Made by a program: the position numbers and the translations under genes
Notes under the pieces: model-generated
The model's database searches: none
What the model was told of the DNA's origin: nothing
What the model saw: the letters and a program-made list of their open reading frames with translations, nothing else
Shown: positions 18,417 to 26,931 of the stretch, in pieces
Layout: each line of letters starts with the position of its first letter
How positions within the stretch are numbered: position 1 is the first letter of the stretch
Source: Lysobacterales bacterium
Lineage (GTDB): Bacteria; Pseudomonadota; Gammaproteobacteria; Xanthomonadales; SZUA-36
Direction of reading: 5' to 3'
Assembly (NCBI GenBank): GCA_011773845.1
Contig: WVWV01000033.1
Span: 7,113-71,112, forward strand
Length of the DNA stretch: 64,000 bases

Positions 18417-19937
18417 CTAGCCTCTGCGGCGGCGGGACCGGCCGCGACGCCCCGCTGCGGGACTGGCCGCGGCGGGCTCTGGCGGCGGGGGCAGTTCGGG
18501 CAACTGCTGCTGCGTTTCGAGGCCATCCATGATCAGCGCCCGCATGGCCTCGTCGATGGCAGGGTCGGTCGCGATCGGCGTATAAGCGGCCAGGCGACGC
18601 TCCACCTCGTCATTGGCGCGCTGCGGCAGGTCCCGGGCGCCCCGTTTCTCCCAGTTCTCACGGTTTTCCCGATCGATGACGGGATCGGTCAGGTACAGTT
18701 CGCGGGGCCAGTGCTGCAGCGTGTGCTCCGAGGTGATCAGGTGGTTGTCCCGCATCAGGTCGTCCACCAGGCCCTGGGCCGGCAGGTCGTCCAGCACCTG
18801 GATCTCGCGCACGAAATGCAGCGCCTGGCCGCAGACCTCGTTGTCGAACACCAGCTTGGGCAGGCTGAAGGTCAGCACGAAATCGAGCATGCCCGGCCCG
18901 GACACGGAATTGACCCCGGCGATCGCGGCCAGCAGGGCACTGCTGAATGTCTCGCCACCGGCCTGGGCGTCGAGGAACTTGCCGTCCGACAGCGCCATGT
19001 ACGCCTGGGTCGGCAACCCCAGGGACTTGGCGATGGCCACGTAGCCCGCATTCAGGTGCTGGGCCTCGATCGCGGCCATGGGCGAAGACGCCGCTTTCAT
19101 GTGAAAGGTGGCGGGGGCGCCGCCGAACAGGACCGGCGCGCCGGGGCGCACGATCTGTGCCATGGTGAGGCCGGTCAGCACGTCCACGCAGTGGAATACC
19201 AGCGCCCCGACCAGTGTCACCGGGGCGATCAGGCCCATCAGCGTCACCGGCACGATCTCGACCGCTATACCCGCTTCCACGCAATCCAGCAGGTTCTGAC
19301 AGGAATCCTCGCCGTAGCGGAAGTTGCCGGTGGCGGTGATGGTGAAGATGGACATCGGCTTCGCCACCAGGTCCGCGCGGCTGTCCCTGAACATCTCCAG
19401 CATGGCCGCCATGCGCGGCACGCCATGCTCGGTGAATGCGCCGGACACCATGGGCTTGCGGGTGGTGACCAGCAGCATGTACAGGCGCCAGGCGTCGGAG
19501 ACCTGCGACTCGATGTCCTGGTTGGTCGAAAAAGCCGTGGACGGGTAGGCGATGTGTTCCAGCCCGTCGCAGAGGCGCGCATACTCGATGAAATCCCGCG
19601 AATCCGCCAGGCGCGTCTCGCCGGTGCGGTGGTCCTGTATCTTCAGCCCGCTGGACCCCGGCGTGAAGTGCACCCGGTCGCCGCCGATCTCGGTATAGGG
19701 CTGGCCGTCGCGGTCGTACAGGGTGAACGAGCCGGGCGCGTCGGCGATGGCCTGGTCCACGACCTCGGGTGGGAACAGGATGCGGCCGGACGCATCGGCT
19801 TTCAGCCCGTGGTCCAGCAGGCGAGCCTTGAGCGGCGCGCCGCGGATTTCCATCCCCCTCTCGGCCAGCAGCCGCTTCGCCTCGGCCAGGATGCGGCCGA
19901 TCATCTCCTCGCTCAGTATGTTCAGGCTGGGTCGCAT
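18417..19937 (-). CDS. Trimethylamine-methyltransferase-family (MttB superfamily) protein, non-pyrrolysine, paralogue B
   Basis: Uninterrupted ORF with no in-frame TAG. '[24 protein letters not shown]' is the typical MttB N-terminus, followed by a TIM-barrel-length body. Start set at ATG 19937. The C-terminus is Arg-rich ('[11 protein letters not shown]'). Confidence 0.85.
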
Positions 19938-19953
19938 CCTCGCGTTCCTGTGT

Positions 19954-21477
19954 TCACCGGGCGACAACGCCCTCGATCTCATTCTTGCGCCGCGCAACGT
20001 AGTCGGTCAGGGCCTCGCGGATGCCCGGATCCGACGGCGGTTGCTCGTACTCCGACAGCAGGCGCTTCCAGACGCCGTTGGCCCGCTGCGCCACGTCGGC
20101 ACTCCCGGCTTCCTGCCAACGCTCGAAATTGAGCCGGTCGGAAACCAGCGGTTCGTAGAACGCCCTCTCGTACCGCTCCAGTGTATGCCGAGTCCCGAAA
20201 TGATGGCCACCCGGCGGCACCCCGGCAATAGCCTCCAGCGCCAATTCGGCCTCATCCACCGCAATCGGCTCGAGCGAGGCTGCCATCATCTGCAGCATCT
20301 CGGCGTCCACCACCAGCTTCTCGAACGAGGCCGTCAGCCCGCCCTCCAGCCAGCCAGCCGCATGGTTGACGAGGTGGCAGTGCGCCAGCAGGCAGGCCCA
20401 CAGGGACAGGCCGCTCTCGTACGCGGCCTGCGCATCGACGCTGTTGGCCGTGGTGGTGTTGCTGGACCGGAACGGCAAGCCGAGCGCCCGCGCGATCTGG
20501 CCACTGGCAATCACCAGGCGCGCGTACTCCGGCGTGCCGAGCGCGGGTGCGCCGCTGCGCATGTCGACGTTGGAGGCGAACGCGCCGTACATGACCGGCG
20601 CGCCCGGCCTGACCACCTGCGCCAGTGCCACCACCGCCAGCACCTCGGCGGTCTGCTGCACCAGCGTGCCGGCTAGCGTGGCCGGGCTCATGGAGCCGGC
20701 CAGCGTGAACGGCGTGATGCAGGCAACCTGGCCGGCGGCGGCCAGTTCCATCACCGCCTCGGCCATGGGCACGTCCAGCTGGCGGGGCGAGTTGGTGTTG
20801 ATGATGCCCAGCACCGCGGGGTCTGCGGCCAGGCCCTCGCGATCGGTGCCCAGCGCAATCGCCGTCATTTCCAGGCAATCCACCGTGCGCGCCCGACCCA
20901 GTGGGTAGGCCTGTGCGTTCTTGTCCAGCAGGGTCAATTGCGCGAGGTACAGGTCCAGGTGACGCGATTCCGGCGGCAGGTCCATCGGCTCGAAGGCACC
21001 GCCGCCCTCCTGGTGGATGATGTTGAGGCTCTGCACCAGGCGCAGGTAGTCGCACAACTCGGCGTAGCTGCCCGGCCGGCGGCCGCGATCGAGATCGCTG
21101 CAGAAAGCCGGCCCGCCGACCGAGGCGAAGACCATGTGATCGCCCCCGATCACAAGGTCCCGCGCCGGGTTGCGCGCCCGCAGGGCGAATCGCCCGGGCG
21201 CCGTGGCGCCGAGCTCGCGCACCAGGTCGCGCGCGAAACACACCATGGCAGTGGATTCGTCGACCTCGGCGCCCGCGGCGCGCAGCAGCGACCGGCTCTC
21301 GGCCTCCAGGAAGCGCATCCCGTGCTCCTCCAGCACCGCCAGCGCCGCCTCGATGATGACTTCCACCTGGTCTTCACTCAGCAGTGCCAGCGGGGGGTGG
21401 GGGTTGCGCAGGTCCTGCCACGGCAATTGATGGACGGCCGCTGGCTGGCGCCGGACCCTGCGCGAACGCCTGCCCAC
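19954..21477 (-). CDS. Trimethylamine-methyltransferase-family (MttB superfamily) protein, non-pyrrolysine, paralogue A
   Basis: Uninterrupted ORF. '[24 protein letters not shown]', 'NTNSPRQLD' and '[10 protein letters not shown]' are MttB-like. GTG start at 21477, 8 nt after the upstream stop, gives the Arg-rich N-terminus '[10 protein letters not shown]' common in this family. Confidence 0.85.
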
Positions 21478-21485
21478 CGGCCCGC

Positions 21486-25305: not shown

Positions 25306-25614
25306 TCACCGGGCGCTCGCCCCGGCTCGGCCACCGGCCTTGACCACCCGCTCCAGCTCGGCCGGCGGGAAGCGGCGCTCCAGCGCGCGGGCCCGCTCGC
25401 GGACCAACTGCTCGAGATCGCCCTCGAGCAGTTCCGTCTCGCGGCGCCAGTCTTCCAGGTACGCAGCGCTCGAACCTCGCCCGGCCCGCATCGCGGCCCG
25501 GTCGATGGCCTGTTGGAACCGTGGCTCCAGTTCCTGCTTGCAGCGCTGGCGGCCCTGTTTGCCCACCACCTGGGCCGGGATGTCCCGCCAGTAAATGCTG
25601 GTCAGCTTCACCAT
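25306..25614 (-). CDS. Small conserved protein of the family often annotated 'virulence factor' that accompanies DUF1638/corrinoid clusters
   Basis: 102 aa starting 'MVKLTSIYWRDIPAQVV'. The start overlaps the DUF1638 stop by 7 nt. The family name comes from memory of similar neighbourhoods and is not verified. Confidence 0.55.
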   Translation of the reverse strand: MVKLTSIYWRDIPAQVVGKQGRQRCKQELEPRFQQAIDRAAMRAGRGSSAAYLEDWRRETELLEGDLEQLVRERARALERRFPPAELERVVKAGGRAGASAR

Positions 25615-26204
25615 GCGGCCACCCGATTCCGCAGCACGGCCTCCAGCGGCGCCAGGCCGGTCGGATGTGGATGGAACTCCAGTTTCAGGTAGCGGGCGCA
25701 CTCGCGCGCCCGCTCGGACAATCCGGGCGTATCCGACTGCGCCAGGTAAACGACCCGGCGGTAGTTGCCAAAGTAGCTGTCCCGCAGCTCGGGGTGCCGG
25801 TCGAGGCCCAGCCCGCGCACCACCAGGCGCTCGAAATGCCGCACAAGGAAGTCGGTCAGGTAGAAAGTGCCGGGCTCATCGTTCGCCAGGCGCTCGAAGC
25901 GGCTCGCGCCCGCGAAGAACTGGTAGCAGTGCGCGCCCGGCAGGCGCTCCACGCCATACTCGGTCAGCACGCGGTCCAGCGCCCCGCCGGTCCCGCAGTC
26001 GCCATAGGCGACGAACATGCGGACCCCGTCGGCGCGGTGGCGCTCGATGGCCGTCCGGACCGCACCCGGTATCCGCTGGGGGGTGTTGTGCAGTTCCGCG
26101 GGCAGGCACTGTACGCGCAGCGCCGCCCAGCGGTTGCGGCGCTTGAGTTCAACCAGCTCACGAGCCAGCGCCCCACAGGCGATGATGAGGATTCGCATCG
26201 TCAT
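25608..26204 (-). CDS. DUF1638-domain protein
   Basis: 'MRILIIACGALARE...' and 'FVAYGDCGTGGALD' are typical DUF1638 motifs. Start at ATG 26204 (GGAG 4 nt upstream) or 26198. Confidence 0.7.
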   Translation of the reverse strand: MTMRILIIACGALARELVELKRRNRWAALRVQCLPAELHNTPQRIPGAVRTAIERHRADGVRMFVAYGDCGTGGALDRVLTEYGVERLPGAHCYQFFAGASRFERLANDEPGTFYLTDFLVRHFERLVVRGLGLDRHPELRDSYFGNYRRVVYLAQSDTPGLSERARECARYLKLEFHPHPTGLAPLEAVLRNRVAAW

Positions 26205-26229
26205 CGCACTCCGAGCCCCGCGCTCCCGC

Positions 26230-26931
26230 TCAGCCGGCCTGTCGCCGCTCCATGACCAACTGCTTGGCGACCTCGACGGCGGTGGCGGCATCCCGGCAAT
26301 AGGCGTCCGCGCCGACCGCCTTGCCGAACTCCTCGTTGAGCGGAGCGCCGCCCACCAGCACGATGTAATCGTCGCGGATGCCCTGCTCCTTCATGGCGTC
26401 GATCACCACCTTCATGTAGGGCATCGTGGTGGTCAGCAGGGCCGACATGCCGAGGATGTCCGGTCGCTCGCGCTGCAGGGCATCGATGTAGGCGTCGGCG
26501 TCGGTGTTGATGCCGAGGTCGACGATTTCGAAGCCCGCGCCTTCCATCATCATCCCCACGAGGTTCTTGCCGATATCGTGGATGTCGCCCTTGACGGTGC
26601 CGATCACCATCTTGCCGACCGGCTCGGCACCGGTCTCCGCCAGCAGCGGGCGCAGGATCGCCATGCCGGCCTTCATCGCGTTGGCCGCCAGCAGCACCTC
26701 GGGCACGAACAGGATGCCGTCGCGAAAGTCCTCGCCAACGATGTTCATGCCCGCCACCAGCGCCTCGTCCAGCAGCTTCTTCGGGTCCCAGCCACGCTCC
26801 AGCAAGATCTGCGTGCCCTCGGCGATCTCCTCGGCCAGGCCGTCGTACAGGTCGTCCCACATCTGCTCGACCAGTTCCTCGTCACCAAGTTCGGCGAGCA
26901 CCAGGTCGTCCGTGTCGTGTTCCTGCGTCAT
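26230..26931 (-). CDS. Corrinoid (cobalamin-binding) methyl-carrier protein
   Basis: B12-binding cap helices followed by the Rossmann domain with the DxHxxG motif 'GDIHDIGKN', then 'SALLTTT' and 'VGGAP'. Start at ATG 26931 or GTG 26940. Confidence 0.9.
   Translation of the reverse strand: MTQEHDTDDLVLAELGDEELVEQMWDDLYDGLAEEIAEGTQILLERGWDPKKLLDEALVAGMNIVGEDFRDGILFVPEVLLAANAMKAGMAILRPLLAETGAEPVGKMVIGTVKGDIHDIGKNLVGMMMEGAGFEIVDLGINTDADAYIDALQRERPDILGMSALLTTTMPYMKVVIDAMKEQGIRDDYIVLVGGAPLNEEFGKAVGADAYCRDAATAVEVAKQLVMERRQAG

Follow-up and report, generated by a model that had tools for sequence, protein, structure and literature searches.

A likely MtgBCD-type operon in a gammaproteobacterium

Eight tightly packed genes on the minus strand (18417-26940) form an intact 8.5-kb B12-dependent operon that very likely specifies cobalamin-dependent methyl transfer of the MtgBCD type, as recently shown for aerobic Ruegeria pomeroyi. 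The window, i.e., the whole 64-kb stretch of DNA analyzed, belongs to a Woeseiaceae/Steroidobacterales-like gammaproteobacterium represented by MAGs only. The initial annotation had taken the homologues of aerobic Proteobacteria to lack assigned substrates, a premise that is outdated given that R. pomeroyi MtgBCD demethylates glycine betaine (PMC12478193). The locus is thus no unexplained module in an unexpected context and, as aerobic marine bacteria were shown to have such a system in 2025, the operon is a further example and not a new kind, although one of its two predicted substrate-binding enzymes, MttB-A, comes from an unstudied branch.

All eight genes were searched with Pfam and NCBIfam profiles, which recovered every domain previously claimed for them (Table 1). 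Neighboring genes are spaced by -7 to +40 nt, and the distance from the operon to the Rieske gene upstream is 97 nt. Both MttB reading frames are free of internal stops and the two paralogues share 29% identity, in agreement with their earlier description as uninterrupted and distantly related. The carrier gene starts at GTG 26940 or, alternatively, at ATG 26931, the start chosen in the initial annotation.

Table 1. Genes of the operon, with positions in the window
Gene	Position	Strand	Product	Profile matches
MttB-A	18417-19937	-	506 aa	PF06253, 251 bits
MttB-B	19954-21477	-	507 aa, GTG start	PF06253, 615 bits
MTHFR-like, MetF2-like divergent	21486-22352	-	288 aa	PF02219, 34 bits
RACo/RamA-type activase	22349-24343	-	664 aa	Fer2 + RACo linker, middle, C-terminal domains
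Pterin-binding methyltransferase, MtgD-like	24363-25265	-	300 aa	PF00809; NF005719, 365 bits
Small protein 'MVKLTSIYWRDIPAQV...'	25306-25614	-	102 aa	PF13769 'Virulence_fact', 67 bits
DUF1638 protein	25608-26204	-	198 aa	PF07796, 109 bits
B12-binding carrier, MtgC-like	26230-26940	-	236 aa	PF02607 + PF02310; GDIHDIG

Carrier, methyltransferase, activase and accessory proteins

The predicted MtgC-like corrinoid carrier has a B12-binding cap and a Rossmann domain, with DIHDIG as its DxHxxG motif. Its top NCBIfam match is MtgC_2 (209 bits, below the cutoff of 370); it is 75-77% identical to MttB-adjacent B12-binding proteins on Paracoccus aminovorans and Aminobacter plasmids, and its median identity across related loci is 82%. 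The pterin-binding TIM barrel is predicted to be an MtgD-like methylcorrinoid:tetrahydrofolate methyltransferase, its NF005719 score exceeding the cutoff of 259. The protein with an N-terminal 2Fe-2S ferredoxin domain and an ASKHA domain is predicted to be an activase of the RACo/RamA type, which would reduce the corrinoid protein at the expense of ATP (AcsV model, 381 bits, below the cutoff of 800). Identities to the P. aminovorans module, i.e., 75% for the B12-binding protein, 60% for the RACo-type ASKHA protein, 61% for the 'methyltetrahydrofolate cobalamin methyltransferase' and 53% for DUF1638, are consistent with module-level orthology with this Rhodobacterales module. The MTHFR-like protein is predicted to be a MetF2-like divergent methylenetetrahydrofolate reductase that would oxidize CH3-THF to CH2-THF. 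The weakness of its PF02219 match counts against this, and TIGR00676 scores 56 bits, far below cutoff; the gene keeps its position in 20 colinear loci and is analogous to R. pomeroyi metF2, which lies downstream of mtgD in that organism.

DUF1638 is tied genetically to B12-dependent methyl transfer elsewhere. In Phaeobacter, DUF1638 mutants are methionine auxotrophs, RamA-like and DUF1638 mutants have B12-related methionine phenotypes, and the family co-occurs with a RamA-like protein; Price et al. (2018) tied both proteins to B12 reactivation (PMC5764234). The R. pomeroyi homologue is induced on N-osmolytes (PMC12478193). Across 30 aligned sequences with 60-68% identity to the window protein, residues C10, C33, C70, C93, H39 and H92 are invariant. 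Its AF2 model (pLDDT 86) had no significant match among PDB folds. The small, helical PF13769 protein is encoded between the DUF1638 and pterin methyltransferase genes in related loci, and the corresponding modules in S. meliloti and Azoarcus sp. KH32C contain homologues. It is a conserved, unstudied module member: a literature search found no paper citing PF13769, and its AF2 model is poor (pLDDT 53).

Two MttB paralogues with different residue patterns

MttB-B is a probable betaine (acidic quaternary amine):corrinoid methyltransferase of the non-pyrrolysine MttB superfamily. Its PDB matches include 4yyc (346 bits) and D. hafniense MtgB (302 bits, aligned end to end). It retains two of the four glycine-betaine contacts of D. 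hafniense MtgB, the carboxylate-binding R312 and H348, and has Gly, invariant across 49 orthologues, at Y97 and F356, the aromatic cation-pi residues shown to be important in that enzyme (PMC13080624). With both aromatics missing, MttB-B is by this residue test not an MtgB, which counts against the main reading. Because R312 and H348 are kept and relatives adjoin sarcosine oxidase and dimethylglycine dehydrogenase genes, MttB-B probably acts on a betaine; its substrate is most likely a carboxylate-bearing quaternary amine, with glycine betaine as leading candidate. Homologues in Mesorhizobium and Parasedimentitalea are 57-61% identical, the latter (58%) adjoining soxBDAG and a gene for an FAD-dependent oxidoreductase (807 aa) whose type is unconfirmed. 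The B/A pair of loci L040 and L029 has as neighbors SoxA-like and SoxB-like genes and the gene for a DJ-1/PfpI-domain protein that may be a GlxA-type regulator; L040 alone of the two has a FAO_M + GCV_T gene, an architecture found in dimethylglycine dehydrogenase. Counting against the assignment, MttB-B lies outside the mtgC-adjacent MttB clade of S. meliloti and Paracoccus, whose members have a Y/R/L/H/G pattern and are 43-45% identical to D. hafniense MtgB.

MttB-A is predicted to be a non-pyrrolysine MttB-superfamily methyltransferase as well. Its barrel is complete and can be aligned over its whole length with MtgB and MttB, MtgB being the best PDB match (186 bits). None of the four contacts is kept, the sites holding Ser, Gln, a deletion and Val; the pyrrolysine position is Leu in MttB-A and a one-residue deletion in MttB-B. 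These contact-site and pyrrolysine-site residues of MttB-A are invariant in 82 sequences. Neither paralogue is therefore a clear orthologue of a characterized substrate clade. R312 is conserved in six of six characterized members, all acting on acidic quaternary amines (PMC13080624; PMC12155760). MttB-A belongs to a large, uncharacterized Arg-less subfamily; its donor probably differs from that of MttB-B, and binding probably does not use a carboxylate-Arg salt bridge. MttB-A sequences form a discrete cluster at 50%, the next full-length relatives (35-42% identity) share PT[QH]xY..LSD, and no plasmid homologue exceeds 30% identity. The earlier proposal of one or two unknown amine donors stands strongly only for MttB-A, a betaine being probable for MttB-B.

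Proposed mechanism

From the gene content, domain identities, residue patterns, synteny and match to published systems, we infer the catalytic steps, the direction of flux and both substrates. Each MttB protein would bind a methylated nitrogen compound and offer one N-methyl group to the Co(I) corrinoid of the single MtgC-like carrier, MttB-A supplying this carrier from a donor other than that of MttB-B. The MtgD-like enzyme would move the methyl group from CH3-Co(III) to tetrahydrofolate, and the MTHFR-like protein would convert CH3-THF to CH2-THF for C1 oxidation or assimilation. Using ATP and a low-potential electron, the 2Fe-2S/ASKHA activase would return Co(II) formed by adventitious oxidation to Co(I), a repair that would matter more in an oxygen-using organism. 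The DUF1638 and PF13769 proteins would be conserved accessory parts, probably for cofactor activation or loading. The originally proposed flow from N-methyl donor through one shared Co(I)-corrinoid carrier to THF, together with RACo-type repair, is well supported by homology, synteny and published genetics of the homologous system.

Conservation and genomic context

The eight-gene set is conserved and colinear in 20 of 54 related species-representative loci, counting only those with enough upstream flank; this recurrence means that the arrangement is no chance juxtaposition. Two loci (L087/L088) hold the set alone, amid unrelated flanks. A Xanthomonadales/Woeseiaceae-like MAG contig matches the window at 99.6% identity; a 5-nt frameshifting insertion in the carrier gene of the closest public record counts against the main reading. 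The oxygen-using context noted initially is real, the window containing a Rieske GbcA-like oxygenase, a DAO-type FAD oxidase and an FA_desaturase-type di-iron protein. The immediate flanks (PotF-like binding proteins, a GS-like protein and PuuC-like dehydrogenases) point to polyamine-like over betaine metabolism, counting against the main reading; they are not conserved together with the module. Sinorhizobium, Paracoccus and Azoarcus have the core module too, and in Azoarcus it neighbors ProVWX-type transporter genes (ProV, permease, glycine-betaine binding protein), PurU, and ETF genes with an FAD-dependent oxidoreductase.

Alternative explanations

It is possible, if doubtful, that the carrier, pterin methyltransferase, activase and DUF1638 protein serve mainly, or as a second role, as the core of a split cobalamin-dependent methionine synthase, in which MtgD would run in reverse (CH3-THF to corrinoid), a separately encoded homocysteine methyltransferase, MtgE, would finish the reaction and the MttB genes would be add-ons. 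Such dual use is compatible with the MtgBCD-type explanation. About 70% of marine MtgBCD genomes are without MetH (PMC12478193/PMC5764234), and mtgE is usually not co-located (Mausz et al., PMC12478193). Within the window, the approximately 50 proteins scanned include no PF02574 (MtgE-type) product, however, and the two MttB genes and the MTHFR-like gene embedded in the operon fit a catabolic flow.

MttB-B directly precedes MttB-A in 47 of 70 loci, the two genes are 16 nt apart here, and both are under strong purifying selection. This would suit successive demethylations of one molecule on the common carrier, e.g., betaine to the dimethyl form by MttB-B and dimethyl to monomethyl by MttB-A. 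We consider this unlikely, however: genes for the later steps lie beside the pair in related loci (dimethylglycine-dehydrogenase-like in L040, sarcosine oxidase in L040 and L029), a demethylated betaine would still have to be held by the carboxylate-binding Arg and His, both missing from MttB-A, and no MttB-superfamily tertiary-amine user without pyrrolysine is known (PMC12155760). In 14 of 54 loci, moreover, MttB-A occurs without any of the other seven module genes in the scanned upstream 10 kb. The latter also speaks against a heterodimer with MttB-A as a specificity or structural subunit, as do its complete barrel and its greater conservation among orthologues (median identity 79%, versus 70% for MttB-B). 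Although MttB-family proteins dimerize, with the C-terminal arm of each subunit lining the active site of the other, as in D. hafniense MtgB, and the adjacency and tight spacing would fit, a heterodimer is therefore very unlikely. The JGI product name, 'trimethylamine--corrinoid protein Co-methyltransferase', agrees with PF06253 membership, with TIGR02369 as the sole NCBIfam match and with an Rfam PYLIS_3 match within MttB-A. This identity is nevertheless refuted by the missing pyrrolysine codon: neither gene has an in-frame UAG, the MttB-A position is a Leu codon in five synonymous forms among 74 sequences examined, and MttB-B has a deletion there. The TIGR02369 scores (285 and 280) fall below the cutoff of 525, and the PYLIS structure is not maintained (68% canonical pairs, no compensation).

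Comparison with known systems

Compared by parts list, the MtgBCD-type operon matches the aerobic R. pomeroyi DSS-3 MtgBCD(E) system, which is also a split methionine synthase there: MtgB1/MtgB2 (induced PF06253 paralogues), MtgC, MtgD, MetF2, the RamA-like activase and DUF1638. Genetics and proteomics assigned glycine betaine demethylation to MtgBCD with MetF2, RamA-like and DUF1638 proteins (Mausz et al., PNAS 2025, PMC12478193). Knockouts of mtgC and mtgD abolished glycine betaine use, the role of MtgB comes from proteomics only, and MetF2, RamA-like, DUF1638 and two PF06253 proteins were induced on N-osmolytes (PMC12478193). The system is reported in Alpha-, Gamma- and Deltaproteobacteria, with co-located or operonic versions in the latter two (PMC12478193). 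Whereas the R. pomeroyi parts are scattered, those of the present Woeseiaceae-like host form one operon, with no mtgE within 64 kb, one paralogue (MttB-A) from the Arg-less subfamily, and a PF13769 gene that is absent from the discussion by Mausz et al.

D. hafniense MtgABC (MtgB 2QNE, 9YCE; Picking et al., JBC 2026, PMC13080624) likewise combines an MttB-family methyltransferase, a corrinoid protein and a corrinoid:THF methyltransferase. Its MtgB shares Leu at the pyrrolysine position with MttB-A and the carboxylate-binding pair with MttB-B, but differs from MttB-B at the aromatic pair and from MttB-A at all four contacts; D. hafniense is a strict anaerobe, and the carrier here does not reach the NCBIfam cutoffs for MtgC. 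Mausz et al. describe the MtgC lineage of aerobes as phylogenetically distinct (PMC12478193). In Eubacterium limosum (MtqC/MtqA/RamQ with MtpB, MtcB and MtyB; also MthB/MthC/MthA), several MttB paralogues of differing specificity feed one carrier, MtqC, and an ATP-dependent activase is required, as predicted for the operon here. The substrates characterized for these enzymes are all acidic quaternary amines, and all of the enzymes have the R312 that MttB-A lacks; in contrast to the present host, E. limosum is an anaerobic acetogen that channels methyl-THF into the Wood-Ljungdahl pathway.

The closest solved structure to MttB-B, 4YYC from Sinorhizobium meliloti, is named a putative trimethylamine methyltransferase; proteins of its clade show the Y/R/L/H/G pattern and reach no more than ~40% identity to MttB-B. 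The S. meliloti chromosomal cluster (MttB, cobalamin-binding, DUF1638, PF13769, MTHFR, pterin methyltransferase and ASKHA) holds every accessory gene, PF13769 included, its MTHFR, unlike that of the present operon, being of the two-gene type, i.e., MTHFR and a separate MTHFR C-terminal-domain protein.

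Gene content of the operon

Given the G+C content of the window (~68%), reading frames were selected by third-position G+C content. Eight genes were found on the minus strand, separated by intergenic gaps of -7 to +40 nt, with the MTHFR-like gene lying two genes downstream of the mtgD-like gene in the same operon. Pfam and NCBIfam searches matched each of the functional assignments that the initial annotation had made for these genes. Both MttB reading frames are indeed uninterrupted, with no internal stop in either, and the paralogues, which had been called distantly related by eye, share 29% identity. 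The flanks hold a Rieske GbcA-like oxygenase, a DAO-type oxidase and an FA_desaturase-type di-iron protein, in agreement with the oxygen-using context originally proposed. A scan for promoters and terminators gave no signal above shuffled controls, and neither the window nor seven related loci gave an Rfam match to a cobalamin riboswitch.

Coordinates of the operon genes and of other features of the window
Feature	Coordinates	Strand	Size	Family matches
Flavoenzyme	1529-3643	-	704 aa	Oxidored_FMN + Pyr_redox_2
Run headed by MTHFR2	13281-16823	-		
MTHFR2	15951-16823	-		PF02219, 78 bits
Operon	18417-26940	-		
MttB-A	18417-19937	-	506 aa	PF06253, 251 bits (cutoff 25)
PYLIS_3 match in MttB-A	18893-18992	-		Rfam PYLIS_3, 41 bits (gathering score 38)
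MttB-B	19954-21477	-	507 aa, GTG start	PF06253, 615 bits (cutoff 25), profile over residues 2-501
MTHFR-like	21486-22352	-	288 aa	PF02219, weak, 34 bits
Activase	22349-24343	-	664 aa	2Fe-2S ferredoxin (Fer2) + RACo linker, middle and C-terminal domains
Pterin-binding methyltransferase	24363-25265	-	300 aa	NF005719, 365 bits (curated cutoff 259)
Small protein	25306-25614	-	102 aa	PF13769 'Virulence_fact'
DUF1638	25608-26204	-	198 aa	PF07796
B12-binding carrier	26230-26940	-	236 aa	Cap + Rossmann domains (PF02607, PF02310), DIHDIG motif
Amine-catabolism island	27038-47023			
Secreted protein	47116-48213	-	365 aa	
tRNA-Thr(TGT)	48399-48474			

The operon matches the parts list of an aerobic MtgBCD system

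The initial annotation took non-Pyl MttB systems to have been characterised only in strict anaerobes, a premise that is outdated by work on the aerobic Ruegeria pomeroyi (PMC12478193). Glycine betaine demethylation in this bacterium requires the corrinoid protein MtgC and the pterin-binding methyltransferase MtgD, and so does methionine synthesis (Mausz et al., PNAS 2025, PMC12478193). Growth on N-osmolytes induces the PF06253 proteins MtgB1 (SPO2108) and MtgB2 (SPO2134), together with a MetF2 paralogue adjoining mtgD, a RamA-like activase and a DUF1638 protein (PMC12478193). In other Alpha-, Gamma- and Deltaproteobacteria, such genes frequently lie together or form operons, and up to seven PF06253 paralogues with no assigned specificity go with them (PMC12478193). 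RamA-like and DUF1638 proteins have been linked to B12 reactivation (Price et al. 2018, PMC5764234).

The window operon agrees with this parts list component by component. The carrier is a stand-alone cap + Rossmann protein with a DxHxxG motif (DIHDIG), of the alphaproteobacterial MtgC type, and shares 75-77% identity with its B12-binding counterparts in the Paracoccus and Aminobacter modules. An MtgD-like protein and a MetF2-like MTHFR are both present, as are a RamA-like activase (ferredoxin + ASKHA/DUF4445 type) and DUF1638. The operon is thus a further example of a type of system that has already been demonstrated, and it does not overturn current understanding. It is possible that the module also serves methionine synthesis in parallel. 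Against this stands the absence of an MtgE gene from the window, where no match to PF02574 was obtained among the proteins scanned; mtgE is usually located elsewhere in the genome (PMC12478193), and that of the window lineage may be so placed.

Most likely, the two MttB enzymes would methylate one Co(I) carrier with different specificities, MtgD would hand the methyl group on to THF, and the MTHFR-like enzyme would oxidise the resulting CH3-THF. The activase would most likely keep the corrinoid reduced, with DUF1638 and the PF13769 protein as probable helpers. Woeseiaceae, like their relatives, rank among the most abundant bacteria of marine sediments. An operon of this kind in Woeseiaceae would carry cobalamin-dependent osmolyte turnover from the pelagic roseobacters into the benthos, and would raise benthic cobalamin demand. 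The compact eight-gene locus lends itself to heterologous reconstitution, the main points of interest being which substrate the Arg-less MttB-A subfamily uses and what DUF1638 and PF13769 do in the module.

Conservation of the module

The window is 99.6% identical to contig JABAHR010000070.1 (MAG GCA_012974745.1; locus L001), and near-identical proteins bear the label 'Xanthomonadales bacterium'. In L001, a 5-nt insertion (TGAAG at 3523) frameshifts the carrier gene, reflecting either an error of assembly or variation within the population, whereas the window copy (~26409) is intact. Besides this insertion, ~70 substitutions and one more indel set the two sequences apart. MttB-A orthologues were returned from 80 species-representative genomes, all of which are MAGs, labelled mostly as Woeseiaceae, Steroidobacteraceae or unclassified Gammaproteobacteria, with a few others.

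Window proteins were compared by tblastn with 82 loci, of which 54 have at least 7.2 kb upstream of MttB-A. The full colinear set (B12, DUF1638, PF13769, pterin methyltransferase, activase, MTHFR, MttB-B, MttB-A) was present in 20 of the 54, so that the eight-gene arrangement is a conserved one; a further 20 have a partial set, and in 14 all seven partner genes are missing upstream of MttB-A. MttB-B lies directly upstream of MttB-A in 47/70 loci. Across the 20 colinear loci, median identity was highest for the B12 protein (82%), MttB-A (79%), the pterin methyltransferase (79%) and MttB-B (70%), followed by the activase (68%), PF13769 (68%), DUF1638 (60%) and MTHFR (58%). In loci L087 and L088, the eight genes are found amid unrelated neighbours (RsmJ and RND efflux genes), and the set thus behaves autonomously.

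Outside this lineage, the core module was found on a plasmid of Paracoccus aminovorans (identities of 75% for B12, 60% for the activase, 61% for the pterin methyltransferase and 53% for DUF1638), in S. meliloti with a PF13769 gene and a 4YYC-type MttB, and in Azoarcus sp. KH32C, with ProVWX-type transporter genes, PurU, and ETF genes alongside an FAD-dependent oxidoreductase in the flanks. By megablast of the operon against plasmids, the B12 gene matched seven records at ~80% nucleotide identity, and one short match (72.5%) fell in an MttB-family gene of a Leisingera plasmid.

Variants of the operon were also observed. At 5812-8468 of L002/L006 (Xanthomonadales MAG chromosome OY760942.1), a hydantoinase-A-like gene and a gene for an uncharacterised 214-aa protein stand in place of the MTHFR-like gene, with the activase on one side and the MttB pair on the other. 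In L020, L023, L028, L034, L040, L042, L047, L062 and L071, the gene directly upstream of the carrier encodes a third MttB paralogue, which is divergent and shares 25-29% identity with MttB-A and MttB-B alike.

By sequence, neither paralogue is a trimethylamine methyltransferase or a clear MtgB orthologue

Both paralogues align end to end with the PDB entries 2QNE/9YCE, 7XCL and 4YYC. For residue comparisons, the MtgB, M. barkeri MttB and 4YYC sequences were rebuilt from PDB alignments and aligned with the window proteins and their orthologues. At the pyrrolysine-equivalent position, MttB-A has Leu316, encoded by CUG, and MttB-B a gap; no in-frame UAG is present, as had been noted from the sequence. 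The paralogues score 285 and 280 bits with TIGR02369 (Pyl-type MttB), against an equivalog cutoff of 525. A trimethylamine methyltransferase is ruled out by the missing Pyl codon and by these scores. An Rfam match to PYLIS_3 was nevertheless obtained inside MttB-A, the UAG of the model aligning with the CUG codon of Leu316. The same model matched five of seven orthologues (L015, L021, L022, L025 and L031; ~10949-11048), and in these as in MttB-A the match starts exactly at the Pyl-equivalent Leu codon. Over 74 sequences, 68% of the model's pairs were canonical, changes at wobble positions were uncompensated, and the first codon was any of five Leu codons; three of the eight pairs were canonical in fewer than half of the 74 sequences and two more in fewer than 60%. 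A functional PYLIS element is ruled out, given that pairing is not maintained and compensation is absent. Judged from these alignments, the match is a coding-sequence echo of homology to Pyl-type mttB and no RNA element, and it could misguide automatic annotation.

Orthology to the glycine betaine methyltransferase MtgB was assessed at the contacts of the Desulfitobacterium hafniense enzyme (DhMtgB), which have been defined by mutagenesis and a ligand-bound structure (PMC13080624). In DhMtgB, Y97 and F356 form cation-pi contacts with the quaternary nitrogen, and carboxylate binding falls to R312 and H348 (Picking et al., JBC 2026, PMC13080624). R312 is kept in all six characterised non-Pyl members, all of which use acidic quaternary amines (PMC13080624; PMC12155760). 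The aromatic Y97/F356 pair was found in neither paralogue, and the residue test therefore does not support clear MtgB orthology of either. The acid-binding R312 + H348 pair is kept by MttB-B, whereas MttB-A keeps neither residue.

Residues of the two paralogues and their orthologues at the DhMtgB contacts and the Pyl site
Position	DhMtgB	MttB-B	MttB-A
Y97	Tyr	Gly (invariant, 49 sequences)	Ser (invariant, 82 sequences)
R312	Arg	Arg (invariant, 49 sequences)	Gln (invariant, 82 sequences)
H348	His	His (invariant, 49 sequences)	Deleted (invariant, 82 sequences)
F356	Phe	Gly (invariant, 49 sequences)	Val (invariant, 82 sequences)
Pyl site	Leu	One-residue deletion (invariant, 49 sequences)	Leu (invariant, 82 sequences)

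Candidate substrates of MttB-B and MttB-A

Among PDB entries, MttB-B was closest to 4YYC (346 bits), with MtgB at 302 bits. The R312 + H348 pair alone does not define glycine betaine specificity, since it is common to other betaine-specific members (PMC13080624). Homologues of MttB-B in cultured Alphaproteobacteria are 53-61% identical (53-59% in Rhodobacterales), and that of Parasedimentitalea adjoins soxBDAG and a gene for an 807-aa FAD-dependent oxidoreductase of unconfirmed type. In two gammaproteobacterial loci, L040 and L029, a gene for a DJ-1/PfpI-domain protein (possibly a regulator of the GlxA type) comes after the MttB-B/MttB-A pair, together with SoxA- and SoxB-like genes; a further gene in L040 combines FAO_M and GCV_T domains in the manner of dimethylglycine dehydrogenase. 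From this context of sox and dimethylglycine dehydrogenase-like genes, our best guess is that MttB-B would act on a betaine, most likely glycine betaine.

The substrate of MttB-A cannot be read from its context, since its conserved neighbours are the module alone and the stand-alone loci are uninformative. When 1.84 billion cluster representatives were scanned exhaustively with HMMER, a single full-length 50%-identity cluster was recovered for MttB-A (79% identity), the next full-length relatives being 35-42% identical. Most of the latter share a PT[Q/H]xY..LSD signature, with Ser at the Y97 position and H348 absent. No characterised member bearing this signature was found, and no plasmid in PLSDB carries an MttB-A homologue of >30% identity. 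A tentative reading of these patterns, which we regard as possible but rather unlikely, is that MttB-A represents a large Arg-less branch whose members would demethylate donors other than acidic quaternary amines, e.g., a neutral or cationic methylated amine. If this were true, the abundant sediment Woeseiaceae would be B12-dependent consumers of an unrecognised pool of methylated nitrogen.

When plasmid-borne proteobacterial homologues are set beside the window proteins, the MttB proteins appear to fall into at least four clades by residue pattern, i.e., Y/R/L/H/G, which adjoins mtgC in Sinorhizobium and Paracoccus; G/R/-/H/G, which contains MttB-B; G/G/M/E/L, which adjoins ~810-aa FAD-dependent oxidoreductases, with betaine transporter genes in Mesorhizobium and Leisingera; and the MttB-A type. 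Loss of the Arg is thus not unique to MttB-A, given the Arg-less G/G/M/E/L clade. In the plasmid loci of this clade (L093, L094 and L095, from Mesorhizobium, Ruegeria conchae and Leisingera), where the conserved Arg is absent, the MttB gene is divergently paired with that of the ~810-aa oxidoreductase. A GlxA-family regulator is found nearby in L093 and L094, and glycine betaine-type ABC transporter genes in L093 and L095.

DUF1638 and PF13769 proteins

DUF1638 and PF13769 accompany the module in Alpha-, Beta- and Gammaproteobacteria. In 30 aligned DUF1638 sequences (60-68% identity to the window protein), C10, C33, C70, C93, H39 and H92 are invariant, which hints at a candidate metal or Fe-S site. 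Such a predicted site would fit a role of DUF1638 in corrinoid reduction. The AlphaFold (AF2) model of this protein is confident (pLDDT 86) and of alpha/beta architecture; a fold search of the PDB with it gave no significant match (best E = 0.011, TM <=0.42). The PF13769 protein is predicted to be helical, and its model was too poor (pLDDT 53) to be usable as a fold query. Sequence searches of the PDB returned nothing for PF13769, DUF1638 or two neighbouring uncharacterised proteins, and no literature on PF13769 was found.

Flanking regions and other features of the window

A large amine-catabolism island adjoins the operon. It encodes the Rieske GbcA-like oxygenase (298 bits, cutoff 670), which has no reductase partner in its vicinity; an ABC transporter of the PotF type, together with two binding proteins; an acyl-CoA dehydrogenase (ACAD); a TetR regulator of the BetI type; a class-III aminotransferase; two CrtI-like FAD enzymes; a GcvT-like protein that stands alone and matches TMAO demethylase best, in the C-terminal domain of the latter; an ADP-forming CoA ligase; a PuuC-like aldehyde dehydrogenase; an enoyl-CoA hydratase; and a GS-like protein. 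The trio of ACAD, CoA ligase and hydratase resembles a set that adjoins an MttB gene of Ruegeria conchae. The flanking genes were given little weight in judging substrates, because the flank with the Rieske, PotF-type ABC, ACAD and BetI genes was found only in the record of the window lineage and not with the module elsewhere.

On the other side of the operon, a second MTHFR paralogue (MTHFR2), which scores above the operon's MTHFR-like protein, heads a run with the FA_desaturase-type di-iron membrane protein and two other proteins, for which no Pfam, NCBIfam or PDB match was found. Downstream of the MttB pair, MTHFR2 is present in locus L004, and in L007 it is accompanied by the desaturase-like gene and one uncharacterised protein of the run. 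A flavoenzyme gene ~15 kb from the operon adjoins that of an MFS transporter. Its domain architecture is also that of trimethylamine dehydrogenase and of the DgcA and N-methylproline demethylase types. Finally, a secreted protein with a poly-Pro stretch is encoded next to the tRNA-Thr gene, and its C-terminal 'IPVPTLSEWMLALLAMLTLGVGLYAGRARRGQR' looks like an IPTL-CTERM-type sorting signal.
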